A stretch of DNA of 64,000 nt, taken from assembly GCF_006345805.1 (NCBI RefSeq), contig NC_043023.1, forward strand, positions 15,872,001-15,936,000, given 5' to 3'. Shown piece by piece: positions 18,098-63,106 of the stretch; the stretch's first letter is position 1, and the number at the start of each line of letters is the position of its first letter. Below the pieces are notes generated by a model. That model saw only the letters and a list, made by a program, of their open reading frames with translations. It had not been told where the DNA came from and did no database searches. The translations under genes and the position numbers were made by a program. The DNA is from Octopus sinensis. Taxonomy: Eukaryota.

Positions 18098-18182
<85 letters not shown>

Positions 18183-18216: not shown

Positions 18217-18255
<39 letters not shown>

Positions 18256-18258
18256 TAT

Positions 18259-18311
<53 letters not shown>

Positions 18312-18382
18312 TATATACATATATATACACACACGCACATATATATATATATATACATATATATACACACACACACATATAT

Positions 18383-19950: not shown

Positions 19951-21212
19951 CGAGGGGCGTTCAATAAGTAATGCCTCTGACCCACTTGCCTTTGTTTGAT
20001 CTAGCTGAAATTTTGCATGTGCAATTATTGATATCTCTATAGATTAAGTGGCAAATTACAGCTCCGAACTAATTGTGGTTTCTGATTTACAGGTGTTTGA
20101 AATGAGTCAAGTGGGAAATGGAGCATGTTGAGTGTCGAGCAGTGATCCGGTTTTTGTATTTGAAAGGACGCACACCACAGGAGACTTTTAATGAAATGAA
20201 AGTAACTTATGGTGATGATGCCCCATCATATGACCTTGTAATACGCTGGCATCGTGAATTCAAACATGGTCGGAACTCTGTGGAAACAGCTCCCAGATCT
20301 GGTCGCACCCCTTCTGCCATTGATGAGGCATCTGTCCGTCAAGTTGAGGCTACCATTTTGGAAGATCGACGCATAACTATTTCGCGAAATAGCCCATGAG
20401 GTCAAGATTAGTACCGGGTCTGTGGAAACTATCATTCATGACCATTTGCATATGCAAAAGGTGTCTGCCAGATGGATTTCCAGGTTGCTCACACTTTTCC
20501 AGAAGCAAGAACGCAAGAATTTAGGGATGTGCCAAGATGAGTCAAACTTTTTCAAAAGACTGATTACACAGGATGAGACCTGGGTCCATCACTATGATCC
20601 AGAGACCAAAGCCCAGTCAATGCAGTGGAAGCACCATGACTCACCTCCTCCAAAGAAGGCAAGGGTGCAGCCCTCCGCTGGCAAGGTCATGCTCACAGTC
20701 TTCTGGGACCAGGACGGAGTAGTGATGACAGATTTCCTGGCAAAGGGTACCACAATTGCAGGAGCCTATCATGTTTCACTTTTGAGGAAATTAAGAGAAG
20801 CTATCGAAACCAAGAGGCGGGGCAAGATCAGCAAAGGCATCCTCCTCCTGCAGGACAACGCTCCGGTCCACAACTCGCGTGTCGCCAGATCAGAAGCACA
20901 GGCGTGCGGCTATGAACTCTTCCCCATCCCCCCTACTCTCCTGACCTTGCACCCTCTGATTTTCACCTCTTCCCAGCCATGAAGTTGTTTTTGAAAGGAA
21001 AGCGTTTCCTAGATGATGCAGCCTTGATTTCTGAAGTCACGTCGTGGTTGGAGGACCAGGCTGGTGTCTTCTATGAAAACCGTCTCCAGAACTGCATCAA
21101 ACGATGGGAGAAATGCGTACCTCTGGGTTGTTCCTATGTAGAAAAAGACTAATACCTGTGCCAAGTTTCGTTGTTCTACTGGTCAGGGGCATTACTTATT
21201 GAACGCCCCTCG
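19951..21212 (+). mobile_element. Full-length mariner (DD34D-type) transposon with TA TSD
   Basis: TIRs CGAGGGGCGTTCAATAAGTAATGCC / GGCATTACTTATTGAACGCCCCTCG flanked by TA; 1262 bp. Confidence 0.95.
20118..21152 (+). pseudogene. Mariner transposase, frameshifted
   Basis: HTH N-terminus, ITQDETWV, LLQDNAP, YSPDLAPSDFHLF and RWEKCV spread over shifted frames. Confidence 0.92.
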
Positions 21213-21639
21213 TATTTATTAAAACTTATTAAAACTTCGATCGTTGTATGCCTGGTCGTCATAATGTTGCCACCATGCACAAAATGCCAACTTCTCTGAT
21301 TGAGTAAAAATGCCCTTTTACTTGTTTCAGTCATATGACTGCGGCCATGCTGGAGCACCGCCTTTAGTCGAGCAAATCGATGAAAGACGACAAGCCGTTC
21401 CATTGTTTGAGAGAAAATAAGATTTTATTTACAAGGTGTTAAGGTTAGAAGGTTGTGAGTGCTAGCAAGTGTTGTGTATGTGCGCAAGCAACAAGTGCTT
21501 TTGTGTCTGTGGCAGATACAAATGAGGGTGAATGCGTGTGACACAGAAAGTACAGAGCATAGAGTTAATGATGGAGATTGGTTTACAGTTCGTAAGGTAC
21601 ACGATATGTAAGAGTTCCATATCAAGATGTGTTTCAGGC

Positions 21640-21930
21640 GGAGACCGGTTGGGCGAATATTGTCGAGCCGCGATTTCATCGTTGAACTTACTCTCCTCCG
21701 ACCGCCCGTTGCGGCAGAAGTTTTCGGCTTTTACTGACGCGTATGTTGCGTCAGGGTGGGGACTCATTATGAGATCCCTGACCGATGTGGCGAGTTTGGG
21801 AGGCAAACTCGAATAGAGCAGATGCAACTGCTGCCGTGGAGGAACGGCATGGGCGGAAAAATGCGACTCCACCTGGGCAAACCACAGACCCGCATCCCCC
21901 GTGAACAAAGGCAAACCTGGTGCAGCCATG
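21640..21930 (-). mobile_element. Ty3/Gypsy gag N-terminal fragment
   Basis: MAAPGLPLFTGDAGLWFAQVESHF...PDATYASVKAE; similar to the gag pieces at 55.1-56.2 kb. Confidence 0.75.
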
Positions 21931-22295
21931 TTCGTCCGAAAACGCCTGTCAGAAAGGGGCAGAAGGTAAGAACGAGAAGCGGAGAACACGCGGAACCGAC
22001 AAAACAAACCAAAAAATAAAATGTGTTTGTGTACTGGTGTGTGTGTGTGTGTGCACTTTGTGGGTAGTAGAGAAATAGGTGTGTGTGCACAAAGGAAAAA
22101 CAAAGGCTACAGAAAAATAATGTGTGAGGACTATTTTTTTTTTTTTTTCAGTGTACTGAGTGCGATGGATAAAACTTTTTGTACGCACCTTCGCCGTCCT
22201 GAAATGGAAAAAAAAATGAAACTGAAACTGAGAGGTCAATCCACGTGTGTGCTGACTGGCAAGCCTGTTCGCTGCGTCTTCTGTTTATTTTTTTC

Positions 22296-22700
22296 TCTCG
22301 GGGTCACTAATTGTAACAGGATCAGGTTCGGTAACACTGGAGGGGTGTCCGATCTGATCCCGTCACATACAATTTAGGTAGAATAACAGAGACAAAGTCA
22401 GGCGGTCTACGATCACAGCAAAATGGTTGTTTATTTCTCGTCACAATCAACAACCGGTGGGAAACCGACAGCCGAATCCGCAGCACTGATCGCTCGCTTT
22501 CTTGTTTGTTAGTCGAACGATTCGTCGGCTTCGCTGCTTGGTTGGGATGAAGTGCTCAAAGAGACAGTCAATACACGTCCGTTCTCCGGTGCTGCCTGAG
22601 CCAGAAAAAGGTGAGTGAGCGACCTGCGTGTTAGAGGTCCGTTCCTGCGCATGAGAAAGACTTCCGGTGATAGTTGCTTATTTCATTCACTTCAGAAAGT
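22296..22700 (-). mobile_element. Gypsy LTR remnant with PBS
   Basis: Minus strand ...CTGTTACA|ATTAGTGACCCCGAG upstream of gag; matches CTGTTACA|ATTGGTGACCCC at 55568 and 57179; distal boundary uncertain. Confidence 0.55.
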
Positions 22701-22979
22701 AGCAGTTGCCCATTGAACGAGCACCTCTAAGTTAGTTTTCACAAACTTATTAACTAATAATTATAATCGAAATAATGCTAATAATCACATACGTGGTGGA
22801 ATTTTGGAAGATTTGCTCTAAAAACTACCATTTCTTTTTTTTTTTTTTTTTTTTACATTTTTTCGACACAACCCCAACTTTTTCGGCTGCGGGGAATACG
22901 AATATAGTGGGAATTACAAATAACGCGCGTACGTATCATAGTTGTAAATAAACAGACACACTAAATATAATATACATAC

Positions 22980-23061
<82 letters not shown>

Positions 23062-23062
23062 C

Positions 23063-23266
23063 GGAGATGTACTTGCATAGCAAGTGATTTGATCTGAGAT
23101 CGTGTGCTGAAACGAAAACAATTACTGCGTAGAAGGTGTTTATAAGCCATTTAAGAAGCACAAAAATATTTTCGTCGCTTTAAGACCACGACGAAAATTT
23201 TTGACAAATCAAACTTAAATGTTGAAGTGAATCTAACAGATTTCGTGTGTGTATATATAATATATA

Positions 23267-23299
<33 letters not shown>

Positions 23300-23492
23300 G
23301 GAGATGTACTTGCATAAGCAAGTGATTTGATCTGAGATCGTGTGCTGAAACGAAAACAATTACTGCGTAGTAGAAGGTGTTTATAAGCAATTAAGAAGCA
23401 CAAAAAAATATTTTCGTCGCTTTAAGAACACGACGAAAATATTTTGACAATCAAACTTAAATGTTGAAGTGAATCTAACAGATTTCGTGTGT
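23063..23492. repeat. Two tandem copies of a ~190-bp interspersed repeat separated by (TA)n
   Basis: GGAGATGTACTTGCATA...GAATCTAACAGATTTCGTG occurs twice; same family forms the hairpin at 48043-48382. Confidence 0.8.
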
Positions 23493-24073
23493 GTATATAT
23501 ATATATATATATATGTATTCTACCAAATATATACATTTTTATTATTTTGGGAGAAAGAGAAAGGCAGAGATAAAGGAGGAGAAAAACAGATAGATATAGA
23601 AAGGCAGAGAAAGAATGAGAGAGAGAAAAAGTGAAATAGACACACTCTACTAAATATATACGTTTTTATTATTTTGCAATTTACTTAATCATCGGCATAA
23701 TGAGATGGCAAATATTTCCTTATTGTTTTCACGTATTTTTGTATTTTTATTCGTGTACATCATCCGTTCTCCGTCCTTGTGTTGTATACATTCAAGGCTT
23801 TCTTCCAGGGGATCTAATGCGCTTGGCTTAGATTTCCCTTGGGGGCAGCCCAGGTCGGAGCAATCTCAAGATTAATCAGCCGAAATTACGAAGATGACCC
23901 GGTTCTTGACTGATGATTGAGGGCTTCGAATGTCCCGTCCTGTGTTTCTTGTGTCGTCTTCTAGGTGTTTCACGTTCTTATCCCAGTTTGTATGTATTTT
24001 TTACTTTTACATATATATATATATCCATCTATATCTATCTATATATATATCCATCTATACTAATCTATCTATA

Positions 24074-24156
<83 letters not shown>

Positions 24157-24264
24157 TATATATACAATTAAAGGCCCCTAAATTAAGATGCCGAGTGCTG
24201 GGGACACAAAGAAGATGAACTTATCGAGAGTGAAAATCAAAAACATTTACCGATAACTTTACTC

Positions 24265-24336
24265 CTCGGACCGATCAGTTTCTGCCTCTTTCTAGCAAAA
24301 CACAAAATGTTTGCTAAGGCTGGCTTTATCAACGAG
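24265..24336 (-). ncRNA. Hammerhead-like motif (U3-A8 variant), left arm
   Basis: Reverse-complement counterpart of the motif at 24487-24560. Confidence 0.55.
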
Positions 24337-24486
24337 TCGCCTAAATTGAATCGAGGTCTGCAGCGAGTGAGAACATGTGTCGATCTCGACTACTAGCAGA
24401 TCTTAACTTTTCAAATCTCTGCGCAGACGCAAAATCTACACGGCATTATAAGGCATGCCAGGAAGAATTCGATTCAATTTAGGCGA

Positions 24487-24560
24487 CTCGTTGATAAAGC
24501 CAGCCTTAGCAAACATATTTTGTGTTTTGCTAGAAAGAGGCAGAAACTGATCGGTCCGAG
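24487..24560 (+). ncRNA. Type I hammerhead-like motif with U3-A8 core covariation
   Basis: CTCG-TTGATAA-aGCC...GGCa-GAAAC-TGATCG-GTC-CGAG. Confidence 0.6.
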
Positions 24561-24790
24561 GTGTAAAGTTATCGGTATATGTTTTTGATTTTCACTCTCG
24601 ATAAGTTCATCTTCTTTTTGTGTCCTCAGCACTCGGCATCCTAATTTAGGGGCCTTTAATTGTATTACTACATGAATAATATTTTTCTATACGAATAATA
24701 TTTTTGTCTTATGACTGATTCGTCTTTTGTGCTGGGCACCTGGTAGTAACTAATATTTCTACTCTTCTTGCTTATATTCGCATATATAAA

Positions 24791-25127
24791 GGGTAAAGAC
24801 CCCCTTCGGTCATGAATGACCATGGGATTGCACCTAGAAAGTTACCCTCCTAGACACAAGTCCGGGCAAGGTTGTTTATGGAAGACCAGCAGTCGCCCAT
24901 GCATACCGGCCTCCCCTCTCCACGCCACCAGTGTTATCCAAGGGAAAGACAAAGGCCGATACAGCTTGGCACCCCTGACGTCACAACTCATTTCTACAGC
25001 TGAGTGAACTGGAGCAACGTGAAATAAAGTGCCTTGCTCAAGAACACAACACGCAGCCCGGTCCGGGATTCGAGCTCACAACCTCACGATCGTAAGCTCG
25101 ACGCTCTAACCACTGAGCCATGCGCCA
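24791..25127 (-). mobile_element. tRNA-derived SINE, family C-related
   Basis: Minus-strand GGCGCATGGCTCAGTGGTTAGAGCGTC...GCTCGAATCCCGG tRNA-like head. Confidence 0.75.
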
Positions 25128-25329
25128 TCCATCTATATCTATCTATCTATCTATATAATATATCTATCTATCTACCTACCTATCTATCTATCTATCTATC
25201 TATATATATATATATCCATCTATATCTATCTATCTATCTATCTATCTATATATATATATATCCATCTATATCTATCTATCTATCTATATATATACATCTT
25301 ATATATATATATCCATCTATATCTATCTA

Positions 25330-25813: not shown

Positions 25814-25895
25814 ATCTATATCTATATATATATATATATATATATATTCCATCTATATCTATATATATAATATATATATACTATATATATATATA
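25128..25895. repeat. (TA)n/(TCTA)n compound microsatellite
   Basis: Visible directly; the same type of tract resumes at 29626 and 30183-30650. Confidence 0.95.
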
Positions 25896-28891
25896 TCAAC
25901 AATCAAGGAACGGCCATATAGGCCATTCACCCACTAGAAATAACAGCCAAAGCTTCAACCGCAATAAAGATTAATTCCGTAAACAGGAAAATTTTAAAAA
26001 CATTACCCTGTAATTCTTGTACGATGCACCGTTTCGTCTGCTGTTGATGGTTTAAACTAACCTGATTAATTAAATCAAGCCAATCTTCCATAGGCCCTCA
26101 GATTCTTCAGCAAGAAATAGCCAAGTCGGAACAGATATTTTCACGAGGCATTCCGACCCTGCCAAGGCAATATAGACCTAAAATTTTCAAATCGTCGCAC
26201 TCGCGCCAAATTTATCGGCAGCAAATAAATATAAGCCGTGATTCCATTACGGAATTAACCACAAAATTCATAATTAATCAATATAGGGTGGCGAAAAAAA
26301 TTTTGTAGAATTCTTTTTGCCACCAGCGGCCTAGTGGGAAAAAATAAATAGTCTAGACCATTTTTAAGTTCAACATCACAACAATCAAGGAACGGCCATA
26401 ATAGGCCATTCACCCACTAGAAATAACAGCCAAAGCTTCAACCGCAAAAAAGATAATTCCGTAAACAGAGGAAAATTTAAAAAACATTTACCCTGTAATT
26501 TCTTGTACGATGCACCGTTCGTCTGCTGTTTAATGGTAAACTAACCTGATTAAATTAAATCAAGCCAATCTTCCATAGGCCCTCAGATTCTTCAGCAAGA
26601 AATAGCAAAGTCGAACAGATATTTTCACGAGGCATTTCCGACCCTGCCAGGCAATATCTGACCTAAAATTTTCAAATCGTCGCACTCGCGCCAAATTATC
26701 GGCAGCAAATAAATATAAGCCGTCGATTCCATTACGGAATTAACCAGAAAATTCATAATTAATCAATTATAGGGTGCGAAAAAAAATTTTGTAGAATTCT
26801 TTTTGCCACCAGCGGCCTAGTGGGAAAAAATTAAATAGTCATAGACCATTTTTAAGTTCAACATCAACAATCAAGGAACGGCCATAATAGGCCATTCACC
26901 CACTAGAAATAACAGCCAAAGCTTCAACCGCAAATAAAGATTAATTCCGTAAACAGGAGAAAATTTTAAAAACATTTACCCTGTAATTCTTGTACGATGC
27001 ACCGTTTCGTCTGCTGTTTAATGGTAAACTAACCTGATTAAAATTGAAATCAAGCCAATCTTCCATAGGCCCTCAGATTCTTCAGCAAGAAAAGAAATAG
27101 CCAAGTCGGAACAGATATTTTCACGAGGCATTTCCGACCCTGCCAAGGCAATATCTGACCTAAAATTTTCAAATCGTCGCCACTCGCGCCAAATTTATCG
27201 GCAGCAAATAAATATAAGCCGTCGATTCCATTACGGAATAACCAGAAAATTCATAATTAATCAATATAGGGTGGCGAAAAAAAATTTGTAGAATTCTTTT
27301 TGCCACCAGCGGCCTAGTGGAAAAAATTAAATAGTCATAGACCATTTTTAAGTTCAACATCAACAATCAAGGAACGGCCATAATAGGCCATTCACCCACT
27401 AGAAATAACAGCCAAAGCTTCAACCGCAAATAAAGATTAATTCCGTAAACAGGAGAAAATTTAAAAAACATTTACCCTGTAATTTCTTGTACGATGCACC
27501 GTTTCGTCTGCTGTTTAATGGTAAACTAACCTGATTAAATTAAATCAAGCCAATCTTCCATGCCCTCAGATTCTTCAGCAAGAAATAGCCAAGTCGGAAC
27601 CGATATTTTCACGAGGCATTTCCGACCCTGCCAAGGCAATATCTGACCTAAAATTTTCAAATCGTCGCACTCGCGCCAAATTTATCGGCAGCAAATAATA
27701 TATAAGCCGTCGATTCCATTACGGATTAACCAGAAAATTCATAATTAATCAATATAGGGTGGGAAAAAAAATTTTGTAGAATTCTTTTTGCCACCAGCGG
27801 CCTAGTGGGAAAAAATTAAATAGTCATAGACCATTTTTAAGTTCAACATATCAACAATCAAGGAACGGCCATAATAGGCCATTCACCCACTAGAAATAAC
27901 AGCCAAAGCTTCAACCGCAAATAAAATTAATTCCGTAAACAGGAGAAAATTTAAAAAACATTTACCCTGTAATTTCTTGTACGATGCACCGTTTCGTCTG
28001 CTGTTTAATGGTAAACTAACCTGATTAAATTAAATCAAGCCAATCTTCCATAGGCCCTCAGATTCTTCAGCAAGAAATAGCCAAGTCGGAACCGATATTT
28101 TCACGAGGCATTTCCGACCCTGCCAAGGCAATATCTGACCTAAAATTTTCAAATCGTCGCACTCGCGCCAAATTTATCGGCAGCAAATAAATATAAGCCG
28201 TCGATTCCATTACGGAATTAACCAGAAAATTCATAATTAATCAATATAGGGTGGCGAAAAAAAAATTTTGTAGAATTCTTTTTGCCACCAGCGGCCTAGT
28301 GGGAAAAAATTAAATAGTCATAGACCATTTTTAAGTTCAACATCAACAATCAAGGAACGGCCATAATAGGCCATTCACCCACTAGAAATAACAGCCAAAG
28401 CTTCAACCGCAAATAAAGATTAATTCCGTAAACAGGAGAAAATTTTAAAAACATTTACCCTGTAATTTCTTGTACGATGCACCTTCGTCTGCTGTTTAAT
28501 GGTAAACTAACCTGATTAAATTAAATCAAGCCAATCTTCCATGGCCTCAGATTCTTCAGCAAGAAATAGCCAAGTCGGAACGATATTTTCACGAGGCATT
28601 TCCGACCCTGCCAAGGCAATATCTGACCTAAAATTTTCAATCGTCGCACTCGCGCCAAATTTATCGGCAGCAAATAAATATAAGCCGTCGATTCCATACG
28701 GAATTAACCAGAAAATTCATAATTAATCAATATAGGGTGGCGAAAAAAATTTTGTAGAATTCTTTTTGCCACCAGCGGCCTAGTGGAAAAAAATTAAATA
28801 GTCATAGACCATTTTTAAGTTCAACATCAACAATCAAGGAACGGCCATAATAGGCCATTCACCCACTAGAAATAACAGCCAAAGCTTCAAC
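25896..28891 (-). mobile_element. Tandem array of ~490-bp units (6 full + 1 partial), each with a minus-strand hammerhead motif: retrozyme/PLE-LTR-like
   Basis: Unit start CAACAATCAAGGAACGGCC near 25897, 26380, 26864, 27361, 27852, 28344 and 28828; no ORF; units differ mainly by homopolymer indels. Confidence 0.85.
27972..28078 (-). ncRNA. Type I hammerhead ribozyme (representative array copy)
   Basis: ATTTCTTG-CTGAAGA-aTCTG..long hairpin..CAGAc-GAAAC-GGTGCATC-GTA-CAAGAAAT; equivalents near 26012, 26498, 26986, 27482 and 28464. Confidence 0.8.
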
Positions 28892-44795: not shown

Positions 44796-45610
44796 GGAAG
44801 GTTAAAGAGCTAGAAATACAAATCGGAGGGGCCACTAGAGCTGTACTTTGCTTGTAGTGTTGAAATGGCTGCTGGGGGTCAATTTAGGATTTTGTTGCTA
44901 AAATTTCTGTTTAATTAATTCCTTATAGTTTTATTATACTATAAGGTGCAGGAGGGGCTGTGTGGAAAGTAGCTTGGTTACCAACCACATGGTTCCAGGT
45001 TCAGTCCCACTGCGTGGCACCTTGGGCAAGTATCTTCTACTATAGCTTCAGGCTGACCAAAGCCTTGTGAGTGGATTTGGTAGACGGAAACTGAAAAGAA
45101 GCCCATCGTATATATATATACGAAATCAGCCGAAATTGCTACGATGATCCAGTTCTTGACTGAAGATTGAAGGCTTCGAATGTCCCGTCCGTGTTTTTTG
45201 TGTCGTCTTCTAAGTGTTTTGCGTTCTTGCCCCAGTTTGTATTTTTCTACATATAATAATAAAATATATATATATGTGTGTGTGTGTTTGTGTGTCTATG
45301 TTTGTCACCCCGATATCGCTTAACAACCGATGCTGGTGTGTTTACGTCCCCGTAACTTAGCGGTTCAGCAAAAAGAGACCAATAGAATAAGTCCTGGGGT
45401 CGATTAGCTCGACTAAAAGCGGTGCTCCAGCATGGCCACAGTCAAATGACTGAAAAGAGTAAAAGAGAATCAGAGGGTCCACTAGAGCTGTACTTTGCTT
45501 CTAGTGTTGAAATGGCTATTGGGGGCCAATTTAGGATTTTGTTGCTAAAATTTGTTTAATTGCTTATAGTTTTATAAAAGGCAATATATCCAAATATTTT
45601 GTTCTTATAG

Positions 45611-45667
45611 GTGGTGAAAGCAGAACTGTTACAAGTAGTGATGGATCTTCTACTACTATCAGACCTG
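45611..45667 (+). CDS. Orphan gene coding exon 5 (GGESRTVTSSDGSSTTIRP)
   Basis: TTTTGTTCTTATAG acceptor, G|GTAAGT donor, 57 nt phase 1-1. Confidence 0.75.
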
Positions 45668-52191: not shown

Positions 52192-52494
52192 TGTACATGT
52201 GTGACAGAACAGTAGAATACTGAGAGAAAAATATGGGCATAAGAGGAATTAGATGTAGTGTGCAAGAGAGAAGACTAACATAAAATTAGACTGCCAAAAT
52301 AACACTAAAAAGGGATTAAGAAAAAATATTCTGTTGTGTCTGGGGAGAGTCATTTTCTTTTTGTGCCGTTTTATGTAACACACTCACCGGTAAAATTTCC
52401 ACTTATTTCTTATTTTCCTAAAATTTTCGTTGCGTCTTGCAACCTTATAAGGCACAGAAAGAAAATGACCCTCCCCAGACACAACAGAATATAC

Positions 52495-52710
52495 TTCAAC
52501 ACACAAACTCACATAAACAATCTTGCAAATCAAATCCAAAAATGAAATATAGAAAAAAAAAAAATGCTTCAACACACAAGCTCACATAAAGAATCTTGCA
52601 AACCAAATCCAAAAATGAAATATAGAAAAAAAAAAATGCTTCAACACACAAACTCACATAAAGAATCTTGCAAACCAAATCCAAAAATGAAATATAGAAA
52701 AAAAAAAAAT
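52495..52710. repeat. About 72-bp tandem repeat, 3 copies
   Basis: CTTCAACACACAA.CTCACATAAA..ATCTTGCAAA.CAAATCCAAAAATGAAATATAG. Confidence 0.85.
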
Positions 52711-52938
52711 TATTCTGTTGTGTCTGGGGAGAGTCATTTTCTTTTTGTGCCTTATAATTTAACACACACACTGGTAAAATTTCCACTGATTTCTTATAGA
52801 GCTTCCCAACAACAACAACAAAACTTTCACTACCACACTGCCACACACCAACACCATTACAGCAATAAACACGAACAACTTGTATCATGCATAAAAGAAA
52901 ACACAGACACTAAATACTCAGACTTTATTATAAAAACG

Positions 52939-53086
52939 CACAATACACCACCAGACTTTACCATACCAACACACAACACACCACCAGACTTTACCATACC
53001 AACACACAACACACCACCAGACTTTACCATACCAACACACAACACACCACCAGACTTTACCATACCAACACACAACACACCACCAG
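52939..53086 (+). repeat. 33-bp minisatellite (~4.5 copies) in a probable LINE ORF1 remnant
   Basis: CACAACACACCACCAGACTTTACCATACCAACA, encoding THNTPPDFTIP. Confidence 0.85.
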
Positions 53087-53292
53087 CACACATTCTTACA
53101 ATAAAGATAAACAAAACTATATATAATGAAATCAAGGAGAAATTCCCTAACGATGTCGGGTCGCTAGGGAGAAATTTCTCCCAAAAACTATATAAAAACC
53201 TGGTGGAAACACCCGTGCAAAAGCACAAGGGAGCCACCCCACCAAACAACAACAGTAAGTAGAGCCTTTTTCTCCTTCTGAACCTTTAAAAC

Positions 53293-53555
53293 ATGGCAAA
53301 ACTCAGAATCGGTTGCTTAAATGTGAGAGGCCTTGGGTCACCTTGGAAACAGGGTCACCTGTGAAACGACCTGAGGTTTCATAGCGTGGATGTAGCAGCC
53401 ATTAGTGAGACCAGGCTCTCCGACCCACAGGAACTCGCGGCCCTTTTCGGCGGATACGAGATTTTTCTATCTCCGTGTCGGCTGGGAGCGGGCGGTGGTG
53501 GTACTGCGGTGTTGTTTCGGAAGGGCCTGGATTTGTAAATAAGGACAGTCTTCCT
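53293..53555 (+). mobile_element. L1/Tx1-like ORF2 N-terminus (AP endonuclease), with stops
   Basis: MAKLRIGCLNVRGL...VDVAAISETRL...GGGTAVLFRK. Confidence 0.8.
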
Positions 53556-53899
53556 TATTAGCTCGACTAAAAGCGGTGCTCCAGCATGGCCGCAGTCAAA
53601 TGACTGAAAAGAGTAAAAGTGAATCAGAGGGTTCACTAGAGCTGTACTTTGCTTCTAGTGTTGAAATGGCTGCTGGGGGCCAATTTAGGATTTTGTTGCT
53701 AAAATTTCTGTTTAACTAATTGGAAGTATCACAAAGTATGGTGCCTTCGGCTGATGAAAGCGGAAGGTAGGAAAACTGGCAACAGGAGAACTTGGGTGAA
53801 GTTAAGTCTAACGACGCCAAAGGTGGCTACTCCTGCGAGATGGCAGCTAAGTCGATAGCAGCAGGAGACGAAAGGGCGCAAACTGGAAGGCAAGAGAGA

Positions 53900-54165
53900 G
53901 CGTCAGCAGGAACGTTCTTTTTCCAGGTATGTGTCAAATGTTACTAGTGAATCCAGGTGCCGGAAAGCACGAGGTGAGAGTTTGTCCGTTTTTGAACCCA
54001 GGGCAAACGTAAGGGGCTTGTGATCCGTATAGATCACAAAATCTCGCCCTTCAAGTTGATGCTGGAAATGAGGAACCGATAGATCGCTAGGAGCTCACGA
54101 TCAAAGGTGCTGTATCAGCTGGTTGCAGTTGGTGGAAAAAGAAAGCCAGAGGTCGAATACGATCA
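53900..54165 (-). mobile_element. Gypsy RNase H fragment (opposite strand to the adjacent RT)
   Basis: Minus strand RPLAFF...YSTFDRELLAIY...LEGRDFVIYTDHKPLTFA. Confidence 0.85.
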
Positions 54166-54169
54166 TCCT

Positions 54170-54995
54170 CTCTGGCCGTTCAACGGGAAAAGCCTACCCA
54201 CTCGACCCTCCATTTTATCACCACCACTGGGCCACCTGTATTTTCGCGCCCACGCCGCCTTGCGCCTGACCGACTAAAAGCGGCTAGGGCCGAGTTTGAG
54301 CACATGCTTCAACTTGGCCTTATACGCCCCTCCACCAGCCCATAGGCGTCTCCCCTTCATTTGGCGCGAAAGGGCGAGTCTGATTTTCGCCCGGTTGGAG
54401 ACTATCGACGCCTCAATGCCGTAATAGCCGACAGATATCCAATCAGAAATCTACAGGACTTTACGGCAAATCTCCATGGTTGTACCATTTTTTCGAAGGT
54501 CGACCTTATACGCACGTACCATCAAATACCGGTCAACCCAGCCGACGTTCAAAAAACTGCGATCACTACCCCCTTTGGGTGTTGAGTTTTTGTATATGAG
54601 TTTCAGTTTGCGGAATGCTACTAGCACTTTCCAGCGTTTCATTGATGAGGTTGTCCGCGGTCTTGATTTTGTGCTTGCCTATGTCGATGATATACTCATT
54701 GCGAGCGACACACGTGAAAATCATCTCCAGCACCTTTCTCAGCGTCTTCGCGCTTATAGTATATGTATAAATCCCGACAAGTGTGTTTTCGGACGCTCTT
54801 CCCTAGATTTTCTAGGCCATCATATTGATTCGAGTGGAATCAGCCCTCTGTCGTAAAAAGTCAATGCCATTCAACGCATCGCACCCCCCACTTCATTGCA
54901 CCAGCTCAGGCATTATCTAGGGATGATCAATTTCTACAGACGTTTTATTCCCGGTTGTGCAGATAAGCTACTACCTTTCACCAGGCTGTTAAAGT
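54170..54995 (+). mobile_element. Gypsy reverse transcriptase fragment, pseudogenised
   Basis: GDYRRLN, FSKVDL, KTAITTPFG, FQRFID, AYVDDILI, FLGH, GMINFYRRFIP. Confidence 0.9.
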
Positions 54996-54999
54996 ACAC

Positions 55000-56200
55000 T
55001 GCGGGCCACACCATCTCACGCCACCAATGCCAGCATTATATTGATGTCTCTCCACTGTTTTCATAATTTGGCTGAACCGAATATGAACGAAGTCTCAACA
55101 AGCAGGAAAAAACACATTTCCCAGCAATGTAACTGTTATGTTATAGATATCATTACAGATCCTAGCCCAGACGCCACCTATGCGACTTTCAAGGCAGAAA
55201 TTCGACGCAACACGCAGTCGGAAGAAAGTAAATTCAATGAGCTGATGGCAGATGAGCAGCCAGGGGACAGGACCCCGTCGCAATTCTTGCGTCGCTTGCG
55301 CAAATTAAGTGGGAACTCCGCAGACACGCCCTGCTTCGTAAAATGACTGAAAAGAGTAAAAGAGAATCAGAGGGTCCACTACAGCTGTACTTCACTTCTA
55401 GTGTTGAAATGGCTGCTGGGGGTCAATTTAGGATTTTGTGGCTAAAATTTGTTTAATTAATTGCTTATAGTTTTATTATAGGCAATATATCCAAATATTT
55501 TGCTCTTAATGGTGGTGAAAGTGGAACTATTACAAGTAGTGGTAGATCTACTATCAGACCTTTCATCCTGTTACAATTGGTGACCCCTGAACATAAAACG
55601 AACATGCGAGCCAACAGATGTACACAGCAACTCGCCCAGGTTTTTATACACTACTGTTTGTGAATAATTTCACTGTCGTATTCACAACTACTATACAACC
55701 TGCGGGCCAGACCATCTCACGCCACCAATATATTGATGTGTCTCCACTGTTTTCATAAGTTGGCTGAACCGAATACAAATGAAGTCTCAACAAGCAGGAA
55801 AAAACACATTTTCCAGCAATATAACTTATGTTATAGATCTCATTACAGATCCTAGCCCAGACGCCACCTATGCGACTGTCAAGGCAGAAATTCGACGCAA
55901 CACGCGGTCGGAAGAAAGTAAATTCAACGAGCTGATGGCAGATGAGCAGCCAGGGGACAGGACCCCGTCACAATTCTTGAGTCGCTTGCGCGAATTAAGC
56001 AGGAGCTCTGCAGACGCGCCTCTGCTTCGTATAATATTCTTCTCCAGGTTGCCTGCCAACCTTCAGACAATTTTGGCTACAGCCCTTGAGTCCAACACTG
56101 TGGACCAAATTGCCACGATGGCAGATAAAATTTTGGAATTTTCTGGCCAGCCAACGTCGCGTGGCGTGTGCGTTTGCACTGAGATCCCTTTGACAGCCTG
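55000..56200 (+). mobile_element. Two Gypsy gag fragments with an LTR-end/PBS between them
   Basis: PDATYAT.KAE...GDRTPSQFL.RLR twice; CTGTTACA|ATTGGTGACCCC at 55568-55587. Confidence 0.8.
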
Positions 56201-56242
56201 TTTCAGCCTCTTCTGTCACATGACACTATATCAGACTAAATA

Positions 56243-56778
56243 CAGAGTGTCCCCAAAAAATGTATACACTTGCTGCAACAGTCTGTCATGCCAAGCATTA
56301 GAGAGGACTTTGAACAGGAAGAGTTTTATTTCCAGCAAGATGGGGCACCTCCACACTACCATCGCAATGTTAGATCCTTTCTTGATGGGATCTTGCCAAA
56401 CAGGTGGATTGGACAGAGAGGTTTTGTCGAATACCATCCACGTTCACCAGACCTCACACCACTAGACTTCTTTTTATGGGGATACCTAAAGGACAAAGTC
56501 TACGCACAGAAACCTGCAACAGTCGTTCAATTGAGGGCAACCATTGAACATGAATGTACGAATATCCCAAGGGAATTGTTCCATGATGTGTGCCATTCCA
56601 TCGCATCGCGTTGTCAGCAGTGTCTGGAGCAGAACGGACATCAGTTTGAGAACATGCGATAACAAGACAATAGAATGATATTTGTAAATTCTTTTACATG
56701 TTGAAAATTATTCGAATTATAATAAACCCCAAATTTACAATTATTTAAGGTGTGTATACATTTTTTTGGGACACCCTG
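56243..56778 (+). mobile_element. Internally deleted DD41D (rosa/Visitor-type) Tc1/mariner element
   Basis: TA-flanked TIRs CAG.GTGTCCC.AAAAAATGTATACAC; 41 residues between the Asp of QQDGA and the Asp of PLDFFLWG. Confidence 0.88.
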
Positions 56779-56873
56779 TAGATGTACTGACACGATGCAT
56801 AGACGAGCTATATCGCTTGCGCGAATTAAGCGGGAACTCCGCAGGCGCGCCTCTGCTTCGTAAAATGAGTAAA

Positions 56874-57173
56874 AGAGAATAGGCAATATATCCAAATATT
56901 TTGCTTTTAATGGTGGTGAAAGTGGAACTATTACAAGTAGTGGTGAATTTTCTACTACTATCAGACCTTTCTATCAGAGAATAGGCAATATATCCAAATA
57001 TTTTGCTTTTAATGGTGGTGAAAGTGGAACTATTACAAGTAGTGGTGAATTTTCTACTACTATCAGACCTTTCTATCAGAGAATAGGCAATATATCCAAA
57101 TATTTTGCTTTTAATGGTAGTGAAAGTGGAACTATTACAAGTAGTGGTGAATTTTCTACTACTATCAGACCTT
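56874..57173 (+). repeat. 102-bp tandem repeat x3 derived from exon 5 of the orphan gene and its acceptor region
   Basis: AGGCAATATATCCAAATATTTTG at 56881, 56983 and 57085; similar to 45579-45666. Confidence 0.88.
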
Positions 57174-57264
57174 TCATCCTGTTACAATTGGTGACCCCTG
57201 AACTTAAAACGAACATGCAAGCCAACAGACGTACACAGCAACTCGCCCAGGTTTTTATACACTA

Positions 57265-58145
57265 CTGCCAGGAACTAAGATTGTCACAGATTCTTGGAGA
57301 GCGTATAATAGCCTACCAAACCATTTGACTGTGAACCAGTGTCACCTTTGTGGATACCAACAATGCCTCAATCGACACAAACACCGTGGAAGGGATGTGG
57401 AGTCACATGTAATCAAATTATCGGAGGATGCATGGAACGTTCCAGAATTTTCTTCCAAAATATTTCCATCAAATTTGTAGAGATCGACAAATTCAAGTTC
57501 ATGCACAGGAAATACCATCGCGGTAGTCATCGAGTCGGGCACTAGGTTCTTGGAATGGTGGAATGGGAAAGTCCGAGATGTGTTTAGTTCCTGTGGAAAA
57601 CAGAAGTCCAGCAACATTGTTGCCTATTATTAGCTGCCATGTTCTGCCAGGAACTAAGATTGTCACAGATTCCTGGGGAGCGTATAATAGCCTACCAAAC
57701 CATTTGACTGTGAACCAGTGTCACCTTTGTGGATCCCAGCAGTGCCTCAATCCATAAAAACACTGTGGAAGGGATGTGGAATCACATGAAATCAAATTTT
57801 CGGAGGATGCACGGAACGTTCCAGAATTTTCTTCCAAAATATTTCCATGAATTTTGTAGAGATCGATGAATCCAAGTTCATGCACAGGAAATACCATCGC
57901 GGTAGGTATCTTAGGAGACTATCCGCAGGGGTCTGGGTGGCAGCGGACCCAAACCACTTAATGTCAAAAGCTGTTTTCAGCCTGGAGACTTAATCAGCAA
58001 AAAATCTGGTGCTCCCAGATTTTCTAAGAATGGCTGGGACAAGGTATCTTGAGCGATGTGGAGTCACGTGAAATCAAATTATCGGAGGATGCACGGAACG
58101 TTCCAGAATATTCTTCCAAAATATTTACATGAATTTTGTTTTACT
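57265..58145 (+). mobile_element. Merlin (IS1595/ISXO2-like) transposase fragments in tandem
   Basis: VEIDESKF.HRKYHRG, IVTDSWGAY, HLTVN, NTVEGMW, YLHEF. Confidence 0.85.
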
Positions 58146-58277
58146 TCAAAAAGATTTCGTACAGAAGGAGACAGGAAAACGAATTGGTTACACAAACCTA
58201 ATAACGATAACTCCATGCGAGCAATTTCACATCCTACGTACGATTCCGTAATGAAGAAAAGGATTGGAATATGAAGA

Positions 58278-58425
58278 ATGGAAAACTCTGAATAAACCTT
58301 TCAAAGAAAAATTTGAAAATATGCCTTGGGGATACTTCGACAACAACAAATGCTACATGGAGAGAGACGTCTCTCTAAAAATATTCAGATCCACACTCAT
58401 GACCCAGGACATCATTGAATGAACA
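58278..58425 (+). other. Putative parvoviral capsid fragment (MPWGYFDNNKCYM)
   Basis: Resembles the parvovirus VP motif TPWGYFDFN; short match only. Confidence 0.5.
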
Positions 58426-58461
58426 TTTGTCTCAACAGTATGGGAATTAAGGCAGATTCTC

Positions 58462-58930
58462 CATAGCAAATGGCAGGACAGGATCGCTAACACAGAGGTT
58501 TTGGACAGTGTCAACATCATCTGTGAGAGGCGTCTTCAGTGGCTAGGCCATGTCAGCCGAATGGATGCAGGACGGATTGCAAAGGACCTACTGTACGGAC
58601 AGCTAGCGGAAAGCTCCAGAACAATGGGACGGCCCAAACTGCGCTTCAAGGATATTTGCAAGAAGGACCTAAAGCTATGCCAGAGCAACACCCAAACATG
58701 GGAATCCACCGCTGCCGACAGAGGCACCTGGCGACACAGTGTCAAACTAAAGAGAACCAGGCGAAAGGAGCAGCAACCACAGCTCTCGTCCCCTTTCACT
58801 TGCACCAGATGTGGTAGGGACTGCCACTCGATGATTGGTCTGCACAGCCACACCAGGAAGTGCAGATAGACCCACCACCTTTTCTGAGCTACACCATTGT
58901 CTCTTGAGATAGACGGATGCCGGATGCCAA
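58462..58930 (+). mobile_element. RTE LINE 3' fragment
   Basis: WQDRIANTEVL, RLQWLGHVSRM, GRPKLRFKD and a C-terminal CxxC..H..H finger. Confidence 0.88.
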
Positions 58931-58975
58931 AGATGGGAATTACTAACACAAAAAAAACCTAAAAGAAATCTTCAG

Positions 58976-59222
58976 GTATTAAGGGGCATTCCTAACTCTG
59001 GCAAATCAATGATAGCAAGAAGTATCGCAGATATGTTTACACACGTATCAACCATTCAAGGGACAACTAGTTCCCCCATTCCAGAACCTAGTAAATGTTG
59101 AAATTGGTTTAATAGAAGAACCAAACTTTACACTGGAAACACTACAAACTTTTAAAAAACTAGCTGAAGGCGTCGACACTGAAGTCGCAATTAAATTCAA
59201 ACGAGACCAAATTGTCCACAGG
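58976..59222 (+). pseudogene. Endogenous parvoviral NS1 SF3-helicase fragment, copy A
   Basis: VLRGIPNSGKSMIARS...IGLIEEP...FKKLAEG; +1 frameshift in a C run near 59075. Confidence 0.85.
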
Positions 59223-59251
59223 TTCTTCAATGTGGTGCCGAAACACTGGAA

Positions 59252-59920
59252 TATGTAGAGATCAACGAATCCAAGTTCATGCACAGGAAATACCATCGCG
59301 GTAGTCATCGAGAAGGGCACTAGGTTCTTGGAATGGTGGAATGGGAAAGTCCGAGATGTGTTTAGTTCCTGTGGAAAACAGAAGTCCAGCAACATTGTTG
59401 CCTATTATTAGCTGCCATGTTCTGCCAGGAACTAAGATTGTCACAGATTCCTGGGGAGCGTATAATAGCCTACCAAACCATTTGACTGTGAACCAGTGTC
59501 ACCTTTGTGGATCCCAACAGTGCCTCAATCCATAAAAACACAGTGGAAGGGATGTGGAGTCACGGGAAATCAAATTTTCGGAGGATGCATGGAACGTTCC
59601 AGAATTTTCTTCCAAAATATTTACATGAATTTTGCAGAGATCGACAAATTCAAGTTCATGCACAGGAAATACCATCGCGGTAGGTATCTTAGGAGACTAT
59701 CCGCAGGGGTTTGGGTGGCAGCGGACCCAAACCACTTAATGTCAAAAGCTGTTTTGAGCCTGGGGACTCAATCAGTAAAAAATCTGGTGCTCCCAGATTT
59801 TCTAAGAATGGCTGGGACAAGGTATCTTGAGGGATGTGAAGTCACGTGAAACCAAATTATCGGAGGATGCACGGAACATTCCAGAATTTTCTTCCAAAAT
59901 ATTTACATGAACTTTGTTTT
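59252..59920 (+). mobile_element. Merlin transposase fragments (duplicate of the 57476-58145 block)
   Basis: Colinear with an offset of about 1778 bp. Confidence 0.85.
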
Positions 59921-60049
59921 ACTTCAAAAAGATTTCGTACAGAAGGAGACAGGAAAGCGCATTGGTTACACAAACCTAATAACGATAACTTCATGCGAGC
60001 AATTTCACATCCTACGTACGATTCTGTAATGAAGAAAAGGATTGGAATG

Positions 60050-60290
60050 TGAAGAATCCAAAACTGAAGCTGATAGATCACAAGATAGTGGTGTAGGAGA
60101 AAGTCAAACTATGGGTGATCCACATGTAGGACCAGCACCTGGTGGGTCTGTGGCTATGGCAACAGGAGATCAACCACCAGACATAGGTGATATAAATCCA
60201 ATTGTATCTAAAAAATTTTCCACGGACATTCGTGCATTACGTGAACTGTAGCGATCTTCCTACCCTTAAAGCATATTATAAAAAACACAA
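60050..60290 (+). other. Putative parvoviral capsid N-terminal fragment
   Basis: Gly/Pro-rich MGDPHVGPAPGGSVAMATG then, after a 1-nt shift, KKFSRTFVHYVN, resembling the first VP beta strand. Confidence 0.45.
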
Positions 60291-60327
60291 TGGGGATACC
60301 TAAAGGACAAAGTCTACGCACAGAAAC

Positions 60328-61064
60328 TGAATAAGAAACTCCCAAAGTGTAATCTACTTGTATTAAGGGGCTTGCCAAATACTGGCAAATCTATGGTAGC
60401 TAGAAGTATTGCTGAGATGTTCACTCATGTCAGCACGATTCAGGGGACAAGGAGTTTCCCATTTCAAAACTTGATTAATGTCGAAATAGGTTTAATCGAA
60501 GAACCGAATTTCACTTTAGAAACACTTCAGACATTCAAAAAGCTTGCTGAAGGGACTGACACTGAAGTTTCTGTAAAATTCAAGCCAGACCAGGTTGTCC
60601 ACAGAACACCATTGATCATTACTTCAAACAACAAATTCGACAGCAACGCACCATTACACGAAAGATATGCTTTCATCACGAGATACACAGAATATCTTTT
60701 CCAAAAAACATCTCCTTTCCTTCAATATGTTAAGAAAAAAATTAATCCTATTATATGGAATGTATTATTTTATGAACATTGTTTTTCTTCTTTAATTAAT
60801 GACGATGGTTCCTCATCGGATGACAATTTATGTCACATTCTATGAAGAATATGAAAAGCTCACCAATCGAGAGACGCCGACAAAGAAAACAAGCGACCAG
60901 GTGGATTTCGGACTCTGTCTGGTTCTGGAAGCGGGTCAACCGTTAGAGTCTTCTCCGAAACAGACGAAGAAGAACAAGTCCCAGAAAGAAGGAAAAAGTT
61001 CAGAAAGCTGAGATACACACCAAATTACGAGGCTGATAGTGAACTATCAGATTCCGAACTGTAA
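60328..61064 (+). pseudogene. Endogenous parvoviral NS1 C-terminal half, copy B
   Basis: Walker A GLPNTGKS, Walker B IGLIEEP, B' FKKLAEG..V..KFK, motif C PLIITSN; same frame resumes after two TGA with RRKKFRK and an acidic end. Confidence 0.9.
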
Positions 61065-61520
61065 TTCTTTTGCATTTATCATTTATTTCTATTTTTCATT
61101 ATCAATTATATAATTTGTAATCTGGAAATGTATTCAGAACTTTTCAAATTAATTATATTTTTCTTGAAAATGTATTTGTATTTTAAATCTTTAAATAAAA
61201 ATGATTAAAAAATTTTTTATTTAAATTTAAATAAAAATTCAAAAAAAAAAAAAGAAGCGTGCCAAAAGGGGGAGACCAACCGGCCGAGAGGTCAGTTGGT
61301 CCCCTCCCCCCCAATTTTTTTTTTATTGAAGAGGATTGCACTGCTTCAAAGAAGTCACCTGGTCGGGAGGGAGGTAGATTATGTCATATATATTGATATT
61401 CATTAAATTTTTTTTTTCATTACTACATTTTACGAAAAACCCAGAATTTAATAATTGTTAAACATTTTCCTCTTTTCAGGTGAGCCAAAAATTTATGCAG
61501 TTAACCTAAATTTATTAATA

Positions 61521-62525
61521 ATGGCTAAAGGAAAGATGTTGACAGATAGTGAAATTGGGTGAAATTGTTAAATTACTTGCTGCAAAGAAGTCTACATTAG
61601 AAATTTCAAAAATTTTGAAACGAGATCATCGAACTGTGAAACGTTTCGTCATTGACAGCAAAGATGGAAGAAAAAAAGCACAAAAGTGTCAGACCAAAGG
61701 TGACTTCACCACGAGATTTGAGAAAAATCAAGAGGAGTGTGCTAGCAAACCCACACAGCACAAGCAAAGCTATTTTCGACCATGCAGGAGTGTCTGACAT
61801 CTCTAAAAGGACCCGAAATCGGATTTTGAAACAAATAGCGGACCAGAGAACACCGACAAAATGTCCTCCTTTGAGTGATATCAACTGTCAGATGCGACTA
61901 GCATGGGCCACTAAATATTTGAAAACCAATTTTCAAAATGTTCTCTGGACTGACGAGGCTAGAGCAACCCTCGACGGTCCCGACGGTTGGACCAAGTGAT
62001 GGCTTCTTAAAGGCAATAGCCCACGCTTGCGATTCAGACGTCAACAGGGAGGAGGGATTTGGGCTGGGATTATTGGAAGTGAGATTGTTGGTCCTTTTCT
62101 TGTCCCTGAAGGTGTCAAAATGAATTGTGAACTACTGCGAGTTTTTGGAAGAGAATTTATTGCCCTGGTTGAATTCACAAAATGATGCTGTCAACCAGAA
62201 TCTCATTGTTCAACAAGACAATGCCCCAAGCCATGCTTCTCGGTTCACAAAAGCTTGGCTTTCAGACCAGGGGATCTCTGGTGAACGTCTGATGGACTGG
62301 CCACCTCAGAGCCCGGATCTGAATCCGATAGAGAACCTCTGGTCGATTCTGAAGAGGAAGGTTTACGAAAAAGGGCATCAATTCAACAGTAAAAAAGACA
62401 TTTGGGAGAGGATCAAGGAGGTATCTTCTGAGATCACACCTCAACAAGTGCATAAATTAACATCCTCTGTTGATAGGAGGCTGATGGATTTGATTAAGAA
62501 TGGAGGAAAGCGTATCAAGGGTTAA
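61521..62525 (+). pseudogene. Tc1-like DD37E (TRT-type) transposase, frameshifted
   Basis: WTDEARATLDGPDG; 37 residues between the Asp of QQDNA and the Glu of PIENLW. Confidence 0.88.
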
Positions 62526-62707
62526 ATTGTTTTATAAATTTGTATTGTTTTGTTAATTGTTATTTGAGCAATAACTGTTGTTTTCTTGTAATATGTTATC
62601 AATATATGGTACTATTATCATAATGACACAATGTTTCAAATTATATTATGTTTAAAAATGTTATTATTTCGAATAAATGAGTCTTGCAAACTCTTTTGGC
62701 CCATATT

Positions 62708-63106
62708 TACTCTTTTACTTGTTTCAGTCAGTTGACTGCGGCCATGCTGGAGCACCGCCTTTTAATCGAGCAATTCGACCCCCGGGACTTATCCTTTTGT
62801 AAGCCCAGTACTTATTCTATCGGTCTCTTTTTCCGAACCGCTAAGTAACGGGGACATAAACACACCAGCATCGGTTGTCAAGCAATGCTAGGGGGACAAA
62901 CACAGACACACACACGCATATATATATATATATATATACATATATACGACGGGCTTCTTTCAGTTTCCGTCTACCAAATCCACTCACAAGGCTTTGGTCG
63001 GCCCGAGGCTATAGTAGAGGACATTTGCCCAAGATGCCACGCAGTGGGATTGAACCCGGAACCATGTGGTTGGTAAGCAAACTACTTACCACACAGCCAC
63101 TTCCTG
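62708..63106 (-). mobile_element. SINE family A
   Basis: Reverse complement of the family A sequence. Confidence 0.85.

Follow-up and report, generated by a model that had tools for sequence, protein, structure and literature searches.

Two likely separate parvovirus-like captures at one locus of the Octopus sinensis genome and a probable capsid-first gene order in their lineage

The locus

A stretch of 64,000 nucleotides of the Octopus sinensis genome (contig NC_043023.1, positions 15,872,001 to 15,936,000; hereafter the window, with positions counted from its first letter) carries two fragments of a parvovirus-type NS1 gene, here called copies A and B. The original prediction placed the pair at 58976-61064, where both are indeed found, but this extent proved too narrow: copy A begins at ~58134 and the viral sequence belonging to copy B runs to ~61405. 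NS1 residues are numbered on P0001, a relative with a full length of 547 amino acids that is 81% identical to B. The viral part of the locus reads as follows.

58134..58449, plus strand: 5' part of copy A, NS1 residues ~196-302 (tblastn with P0001, 55-66% identity)
58450..58932, plus strand: 3' fragment of an RTE-like long interspersed element (LINE) inserted in copy A (tblastn match to LINE reverse transcriptase proteins)
58934..59222, plus strand: helicase part of copy A, NS1 residues ~300-395 with Walker A, B and B', ending before motif C (Pfam, tblastn, frames)
59250..60065, plus strand: 816-bp local duplicate of 57472-58287, with Merlin/IS1595-like transposase pieces and a second copy of the 5' end of A (~59912-60065)
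60066..60261, plus strand: capsid (VP) fragment, residues ~107-172 of the 522-amino-acid VP frame at C12:57.54 Mb of the same genome (G000) (74% DNA match; tblastn 75%/65%)
60290..60327, plus strand: mariner-like filler between the VP piece and B, 38 bp identical to 56476-56513, 3.8 kb upstream (Tc1/mariner DDE protein matches)
60328..61064, plus strand: copy B, from NS1 residue ~303 through the stop codon; the helicase frame stays open as far as 60845 and the acidic tail is disrupted past ~60835
61065..61253, plus strand: AT-rich viral 3' untranslated region (UTR) with AATAAA at 61194-61199 and 61230-61235 and a run of 13 A, the same layout standing behind NS1 in the C5, C12 and C10 copies
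61254..61406, plus strand: likely right-hand terminal repeat of virus B, with a GC-rich hairpin (61268-61310), a T run, a conserved core (61337-61374) and then an imperfect palindromic axis

Copy A as a whole covers NS1 residues ~196-395 from 58134 to 59222. Its 5' part changes frame near 58255-58265 and runs into an in-frame stop codon at 58420-58422, and the copy is interrupted by the LINE fragment, which we take from its C-terminal motif to be of the RTE type and which is bounded by a 10-bp target-site duplication (58440-58449 and 58933-58942), so that A must have been resident before the LINE arrived. The ~1.1 kb between A and B contains the Merlin/IS1595-like duplicate, the second piece of A, the capsid fragment (with a frame break near 60211-60221) and the 38 bp of mariner. 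Copy B is 87% identical in DNA to the copy on C10, a likeness that extends to 61127. Both window copies are truncated and lack the N-terminal (HUH endonuclease) region of NS1.

Divergence of copies A and B

Copy A encodes the peptides GIPNSGKSMIARSIADMF, in the frame 58913-59101, and EIGLIEEPNFTLETLQTFKKLAEG, in the frame 59016-59258, its helicase part being split by a one-base frame break near 59073; the corresponding peptide of copy B lies in the open frame 60282-60845 (187 codons). The observation from which the original prediction started, that the two copies encode nearly the same helicase peptide and yet differ at many third codon positions, is borne out by these frames and by the codon comparison. 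The DNA of A and B is 76% identical over 255 nt, and across 83 shared codons the differences fall 13, 6 and 45 on the first, second and third positions (45 of the 64 at the third). The proportion of synonymous differences (pS) is 0.753, which is saturated, against a nonsynonymous proportion (pN) of 0.113 (Fisher p 1e-19). An internal control is provided by the duplicate of the 5' piece of A that arose after integration, where pS is 0.042 and pN 0.034 over 37 codons, as expected for neutral decay; the full duplicate differs from 57472-58287 at 35 of its 816 bases, the Merlin frame, with only 3 differences, being of no use as a control.

Synonymous saturation combined with a pN of 0.11 argues that A and B diverged as viruses and not as a genomic duplicate. 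Far from a rate ratio near 1, pN lies well below pS over the whole 83 codons, so that the prediction's further claims, purifying selection before integration and two captures in place of one duplicated insertion, hold against a control in which the two rates are low and nearly equal. The locus very probably holds two separate parvovirus-like captures. With 83% protein identity between A and B over these 83 codons, the most conserved ones, and a species limit of 85% NS1 identity (PMC13055364, in the portion accessible), their sequences suggest that they likely belonged to different species.

Parvovirus-type NS1 and its other copies

Copy B matches the Pfam families Parvo_NS1 (E 3e-14) and PPV_E1_C (E 6e-12), and the first piece of copy A matches Parvo_NS1 (E 6e-5). 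A predicted model of P0001 (pLDDT 80.8) finds its best solved structures in the Rep protein of adeno-associated virus 2 (AAV2) and NS1 of B19V (Z 21.8, root-mean-square deviation (rmsd) 3.2, 250 residues aligned), ahead of papillomavirus E1 (Z 18.4), and its best viral model matches in NS proteins of unclassified Parvoviridae sp. at 18-20% identity. As to an N-terminal HUH endonuclease, an HFH motif of P0001 lies on a strand, and over its residues 1-457 the model aligns with Rep68 residues 6-477 (Z 21.4, rmsd 23.3, 369 aligned). The superfamily 3 (SF3) helicase is accordingly that of a parvoviral NS1, Parvo_NS1 ranking above PPV_E1_C and AAV Rep and B19V NS1 being best among solved structures by both sequence and fold. 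A parvoviral rather than another SF3 origin, as had been predicted, is upheld by the NS1 sequence and fold, as it is by the PLA2 domain on the lineage's capsid.

A protein search of the genome for NS1 gave 15 matches among 20 scored candidates. For every one of the 45 pairs that the ten close-clade copies form, pS is at least 0.35 and pN lies below pS; the lowest pair is B with the C10 copy (pS 0.35, pN 0.03) and A is saturated against all nine others, hidden frame breaks in the alignments of C16a and C14a inflating both measures for those two copies. It follows that there is no near source copy of A or B among the copies found, and that about ten separate strains are represented in the genome. 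A midpoint-rooted helicase tree of 147 segments, mostly unnamed, which left out copy A and seven short genomic frames, unites the close octopus frames with five unnamed proteins and an O. bimaculoides protein (support 0.99), B, C10 and the O. bimaculoides protein A0A0L8GWZ8 being sisters. A wider clade (support 0.88) takes in a protein of Lamellibrachia satsuma; deeper nodes, among them those that relate the group to Hamavirinae, Densovirinae and Parvovirinae, are weakly supported. Scans of viral contigs and two metagenome scans yielded no confirmed relative, and the phage collection no match.

The genome also holds a second, distant Parvo_NS1 clade, 27-32% identical to the first (C14:52364039-52364467, C19:42593401-42593757, C29:13038092-13038364), whose fragments resemble, by eye, Sepia and Euprymna sequences in the accessible part of the PMC5013282 supplement. 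At C14:52.36-52.37 Mb (L024 8313-9755, L025 7154-7645) intronless ankyrin-repeat frames are interleaved with NS1 fragments on the same strand, and the C10 copy (L016 7835-9139) has the N-terminal region of NS1 in one open frame with an apparent LINE ORF1. About 2.1 kb past the end of the window on C27 (L029 2116-2205) a 30-codon piece of the NS1 N-terminus, 63% identical to P0001, lies on the plus strand, and the viral mosaic continues beyond the window.

Capsid

The capsid fragment in the window led to a VP frame of 522 codons at C12:57.54 Mb. Residues 4-75 of this VP match Phospholip_A2_4 (E 7e-13), and it scores 0.93 against the atlas VP1 clusters. A PLA2 motif at the N-terminus of VP1 is present in most Parvoviridae, and the octopus lineage has it. 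The window fragment has a pS of 0.57 and a pN of 0.18 over 52 codons, and the capsid copies generally (pS 0.57-0.67, pN 0.18-0.26) diverged under purifying selection. Other fragments that resemble capsid sequence, with 20-48% identity to the VP of C12, were seen at C22:11594136-11594768 (within an open frame of 402 codons), C5:125.6 Mb, C5:96.09 Mb, C1:103.0 Mb, C25:6.17 Mb and C14:66.79 Mb.

Gene order and predicted splicing

At C12:57.54 Mb the VP frame is followed on the same strand by NS1 residues 1-286, with 63 nt from the VP stop to the NS1 ATG. The same arrangement, with 50 nt, is found at C16:40.71 Mb, an independent capture (NS1 pS 0.84 against the copy at C12:57.54 Mb), and at C12:57.497 Mb the end of VP and the start of the same spacer precede an internally deleted NS1. 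A more distant relative, P0006 (33% identical to P0001, on an 89-kb contig), has a mis-called N-terminal extension that is compatible, in the +1 frame, with the C-terminus of VP: it scores 86 against the VP C-terminus, where the maximum in 200 shuffles is 39 and other parts of VP score 25-40, and it ends ~23 codons before NS1. Fifteen proteins were covered by this comparison and P0006 is the sole clear case; P0030 scored 36, with its 30 shuffles reaching at most 31. The usual parvovirus layout, with NS on the left and VP on the right or in ambisense, is not what these copies have; VP precedes NS1 on one strand, very probably the gene order of the viruses themselves, and because of this order we file the group as a parvovirus-like lineage outside the usual layout and in no genus.

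Upstream of VP at C12:57.54 Mb stand the promoter-like motifs CCAAT, TGACGT, CACGTG and TATAAA. A GTGAGT donor is placed 10 nt ahead of the VP start codon and is reached in phase 0 by the open frame of an upstream ATG, while each of the two clean spacers has a pyrimidine tract together with a TTACAG acceptor that is in phase 0 with NS1; the spacer itself hardly folds (-3.5 kcal/mol). These motifs suggest that a single left promoter probably served both genes, VP being made from the unspliced RNA and NS1 from RNA out of which the entire VP frame has been spliced.

The right-hand end

The hairpin at 61268-61310 is more stable than its shuffles (z -3.3, 0 of 200), and a UTR, an A run and a homologous hairpin stand behind NS1 in three copies, B, C5 and C12, the hairpins aligning with scores of 36 (B with C12) and 50 (C5 with C12) where shuffle maxima are 26-27. 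No open reading frame (ORF) was seen between NS1 and the hairpin. Two other origins of this end were considered and rejected. The hairpin is not part of the adjoining Tc1 element, six other genomic copies of which begin at 61409-61410, and B is not a retroposed mRNA, as the A run after AATAAA might suggest, since the homologous hairpin follows the A run in three copies.

Elsewhere, at C4049:~17600-25200, there is a head-to-tail integrated array of about three capsid-only units of ~2316 bp, 97-98% alike. Its VP is 41% identical to that of C12, and the array has palindromic terminal-repeat junctions, promoter-like motifs and host short interspersed elements (SINEs) on both sides; no NS1 match was found in 22 kb around it. 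The unit may be a defective genome or else one of the segments of a bipartite relative. The bases that follow the hairpin of B, its core, align to the palindromic junctions of this array with a score of 56, against a maximum of 44 in 1000 shuffles, for segments picked after the likeness had been seen, and a core pattern built from B and C4049 occurs nowhere else in the 2.7 Gb genome than at these two loci. Imperfect palindromic hairpins at the genome ends, a trait of Parvoviridae, are thus found here at the right end, the NS1 side.

Taken together, these findings make it quite probable that the locus holds two captures from an unclassified lineage in which VP comes first and NS1 second, with a polyadenylation signal and a likely terminal hairpin behind NS1. 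Such a virus would have a linear genome of ~4 kb, the sum of its parts, in the order terminal repeat, promoter, VP, NS1, polyadenylation signal and terminal repeat, and would replicate by a rolling-hairpin mechanism; more distant relatives occur on contigs of 3.9-4.2 kb, and virions of Parvoviridae contain linear single-stranded DNA of 4-6 kb. P0012 is encoded on a contig of 4017 nt, P0027 and P0194 each on one of 4187 nt, perhaps a single contig, and P0189 on one of 3349 nt.

Alternative explanations

That VP lies before NS1 could be an effect of integration, if an ordinary parvovirus with NS1 before VP had been captured as head-to-tail concatemers or circles and only their junctions were seen. 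Concatemers from this virus group do integrate, as the C4049 array demonstrates, but the junction there consists of a ~350-bp palindrome with UTR and promoter. A concatemer of a normal genome would likewise place a palindrome between VP and NS1, where the copies have a short, barely folding spacer of 50-63 nt with no hairpin and with the same motifs in three copies. The polyadenylation signal and hairpin moreover follow NS1 and not VP in B, C5 and C12, promoter-like motifs stand upstream of VP, and the same adjacency recurs in the distant relative P0006, leaving the concatemer explanation very unlikely. A circular genome with one long palindromic origin in place of two terminal repeats, VP still being first, is somewhat less improbable, though still unlikely: a circle would also give the near-perfect palindromes of the C4049 junctions, and no free left end has been seen, whereas the NS1 is closest to parvoviral Rep/NS1. 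Linear parvoviruses such as AAV leave palindromic junctions of this kind in concatemers. As to the origin of the copies, local duplications of 90-96% identity abound at the locus and the C10 copy has an open frame of 316 codons, and one might on these grounds regard A and B as a duplicated single insertion or as paralogs of a domesticated host gene under selection. Neutral decay cannot produce synonymous saturation with a pN of 0.11, however, and A and B are truncated and broken, at 76% identity lie far below the local duplicates and have capsid and terminal sequence alongside; we regard this origin as extremely improbable. A virus-derived transposon family spreading inside the genome would account for terminal repeats, for an apparently non-autonomous capsid-only unit and for the P0011 cluster, in which eight near-identical NS1 proteins lie on four long contigs of one relative. 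It is nevertheless about as improbable as the concatemer explanation, if not slightly more so, given that at synonymous sites every pair among the ten copies is well apart (pS never below 0.35), that the terminal core is found at two loci only and that the PLA2-bearing capsid has been under purifying selection.

Several points weigh against the capsid-first, hairpin-ended virus that we prefer. We read the layout from several different copies, all broken and not one of which has both ends and both genes, and no whole exogenous genome has been seen; no left terminal repeat was found for any VP-NS1 copy, the sequence upstream of VP showing no homology to the right ends in either orientation. The hairpins of C5 and B align weakly (score 28 against a shuffle maximum of 27, mostly through the A run), the VP piece in the window may, or may not, be part of virus B, and the splice is a motif prediction whose donor appears in one copy. 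As for the capsid, which in Parvoviridae is a single jelly roll with T=1, its predicted model (pLDDT 36) gives an unusable fold, and the best solved match of the C12 VP, the capsid of Penaeus monodon metallodensovirus (E 5e-9), spans a short 56 residues.

Integration and transposon context

Most of the junctions are present in public sequence data, as the original prediction required of a true integration. Contigs of four public runs, which come from four studies and bear two organism labels, span the NS1-LINE-NS1-Merlin junctions, with a single contig each in X1 and X5 and with overlapping pairs in X2 and X16; the junction of the duplicate with VP is bridged in all four. One of the runs may be the source of the assembly. 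The junction of the terminal repeat with Tc1 is bridged, and B held, in two of them (X1 and X16), where the mariner/B junction has 30 letters on its left side, one short of the bridging bar. Copy B is uncovered in X2 and X5, and we do not call it polymorphic, as the word shares in these runs (0.82 and 0.76) exceed the ~0.70 possible without B. Among the 24 public run rows listed, 20 (7 studies) hold 68-87% of the words; the listed runs, whose kinds are mostly guessed, include no RNA run.

B keeps sequence beyond its polyadenylation site and a locally templated filler of 38 bp marks its junction, both of which point to capture as DNA at breaks; viral DNA rather than mRNA would have been patched into broken chromosomes. 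In the proposed order of events copy A would have come first, the LINE hit and the partial duplication would have followed, and the piece with VP and B would have arrived last. The viral pieces are flanked by transposons.

53293..57754, plus strand: co-oriented LINE, gypsy, mariner and Merlin fragments, with a gypsy RNase H piece (53903-54094) on the minus strand
61410..62710 (3' end approximate), plus strand: Tc1-like transposon, six other genomic copies of which start matching at 61409-61410

Across ten viral loci 47 of 50 transposon blocks share the strand of the viral pieces, as do 25 of the 27 Pfam-positive ORFs among 193 frames scanned; of the five blocks in the window's first 52 kb, one is on the plus strand. 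Dense, co-oriented transposon fragments of this sort are a trait of uni-strand PIWI-interacting RNA (piRNA) clusters, found here on a thin control and a biased library, and the sequence makes it somewhat more probable than the contrary that the locus is a trap resembling such a cluster. A trap of this kind would keep viral pieces and yield antisense small RNAs, uni-strand piRNA clusters being marked also by abundant 26-31-nt, 1U small RNAs from one strand; piRNAs are reported throughout molluscs (in the accessible part of PMC6128900). The control is the weak point of this reading: in 20 arbitrary stretches of 20 kb just 21 blocks were found, forming 18 concordant pairs (15 of them within one stretch) and 6 discordant ones; the transposon library was drawn from the viral loci themselves, and blocks are not independent.

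Transposon strand bias is also common inside transcribed genes, and one arbitrary control stretch had six of six blocks on one strand; the co-orientation may have its source in a host-gene intron or a long non-coding transcript. We rate this source as a real but lesser possibility, because the bias is alike for DNA transposons, Helitrons and viral pieces at nine of the ten loci (one being without blocks) and the density of blocks, counted per 100 kb, is 21.5 against 5.2, in a library that is biased. Beyond the piRNA-like trap, we would advance only tentatively, as short of an even chance, the broader proposal of an undescribed, subfamily-level lineage of octopus and annelid parvoviruses with the capsid gene first under a single promoter, NS1 made only by splicing out the capsid gene, capsid-only units between terminal repeats (as segment or satellite), and at least ten strains archived by octopuses in strand-biased piRNA clusters as a heritable antiviral memory.

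Other features of the window

A low-copy unit occurs at 45441-45666, 55478-55656 and 56874-57267, with a 102-bp tandem in three copies at 56874-57175 and an open frame without a Pfam family. The triple repeat was considered as capsid sequence and rejected; it has a few relatives, at C27:7.28-7.29 Mb and C4:11.36 Mb. An open frame of 238 codons with a 33-bp tandem repeat and no convincing family lies at 52546-53262, with a 72-bp repeat and an imperfect inverted repeat (52326-52492) upstream. On the minus strand, 11469-14841 is a long and possibly young LINE with an open frame of 1015 codons (endonuclease and reverse transcriptase). The stretch 25895-28891 is a 488-bp tandem repeat of six copies, 95% alike.

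Significance

In parvoviruses the first promoter drives the replication genes and the capsid gene lies downstream of them or on the opposite strand, an arrangement on which their early-late switch is based. Where the capsid comes first and NS1 is likely made through splicing, control has to follow another logic, and such a gene order bears on the shuffling or segmentation of NS and VP cassettes in the history of the family. Through the octopus fossils a group of unnamed metagenomic NS1 proteins gains a host, a gene order and a terminal sequence. That one genome has at least ten distinct captures speaks of repeated germ-line infection of octopuses, and the loci are defined places in which to seek virus-derived piRNAs in a cephalopod.

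Comparison with known systems

The nearest known sequence is O. bimaculoides A0A0L8GWZ8 (KOF81493), which belongs to the same NS1 lineage and is 90% identical to B over 172 residues. The accessible part of PMC5013282 lists an O. bimaculoides fragment as endogenous and transposon-flanked, together with fragments from Lamellibrachia, Sepia and Euprymna and a VP transcript of O. vulgaris (JR446908); the O. bimaculoides and Lamellibrachia sequences are listed there as helicase fragments, and that part says nothing on gene order, terminal repeats, a splice model or the number of captures. The suggestion that the octopus copies might form a new lineage therefore stands in that they are unclassified and uncharacterised, but not in full: an octopus NS1 fragment 90% identical to B was catalogued in the supplement of that paper in 2016, and the lineage itself is not wholly new. 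The accessible main text of PMC10433990 and PMC13055364 does not mention cephalopods, and a monosense parvovirus with capsid before NS1 was not reported in the literature searched, which covers subscription papers, proposals to the International Committee on Taxonomy of Viruses (ICTV) and supplements incompletely. The novelty is in the reversed order of the cassettes, in the terminal repeat and in the concatemer of capsid-only units.

By profile and fold, the nearest named NS1 proteins are those of Parvoviridae sp. from bird swabs (Turdus hortulorum, Motacilla cinerea) and of ichthama- and chapparvoviruses, at 18-20% identity in structural alignments. For capsids, which alone were compared in this case, the best solved match is Penaeus monodon metallodensovirus (Metallovirinae), also from a marine invertebrate host, with a capsid chain of 369 amino acids where the octopus VP has 522 and an N-terminal PLA2; this virus reportedly lacks PLA2 and has NS upstream of VP.

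The bird-swab viruses have NS on the left and are monosense or ambisense (PMC9896142, in the portion accessible), and the family now has six subfamilies in a classification based family-wide on the SF3 domain (PMC13426907, likewise). The same portion of PMC13426907 describes the Swazi bat-associated megaparvovirus lineage as having a PLA2 ORF upstream of NS1 and a capsid ORF after it, with four large ORFs in ~6.4 kb. On that description the octopus lineage resembles it in being atypical and monosense, in having a PLA2 ORF before NS1 and in that megaparvoviruses are partly known from endogenous copies, but differs in that the capsid ORF itself, with its PLA2, precedes NS1. The C4049 unit finds its closest parallel in the segmented densovirus of Acheta domesticus, a Brevihamaparvovirus relative with 3.3-kb segments, of which a capsid-only one has its own hairpin ends, T-shaped and not inverted terminal repeats (ITRs) (PMC10267136, in the portion accessible). 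Both are capsid-only, the C4049 unit being 2.3 kb long with palindromic junctions and no partner segment found, and the Acheta virus, as described there, being divided into larger segments with hairpin ends of their own.

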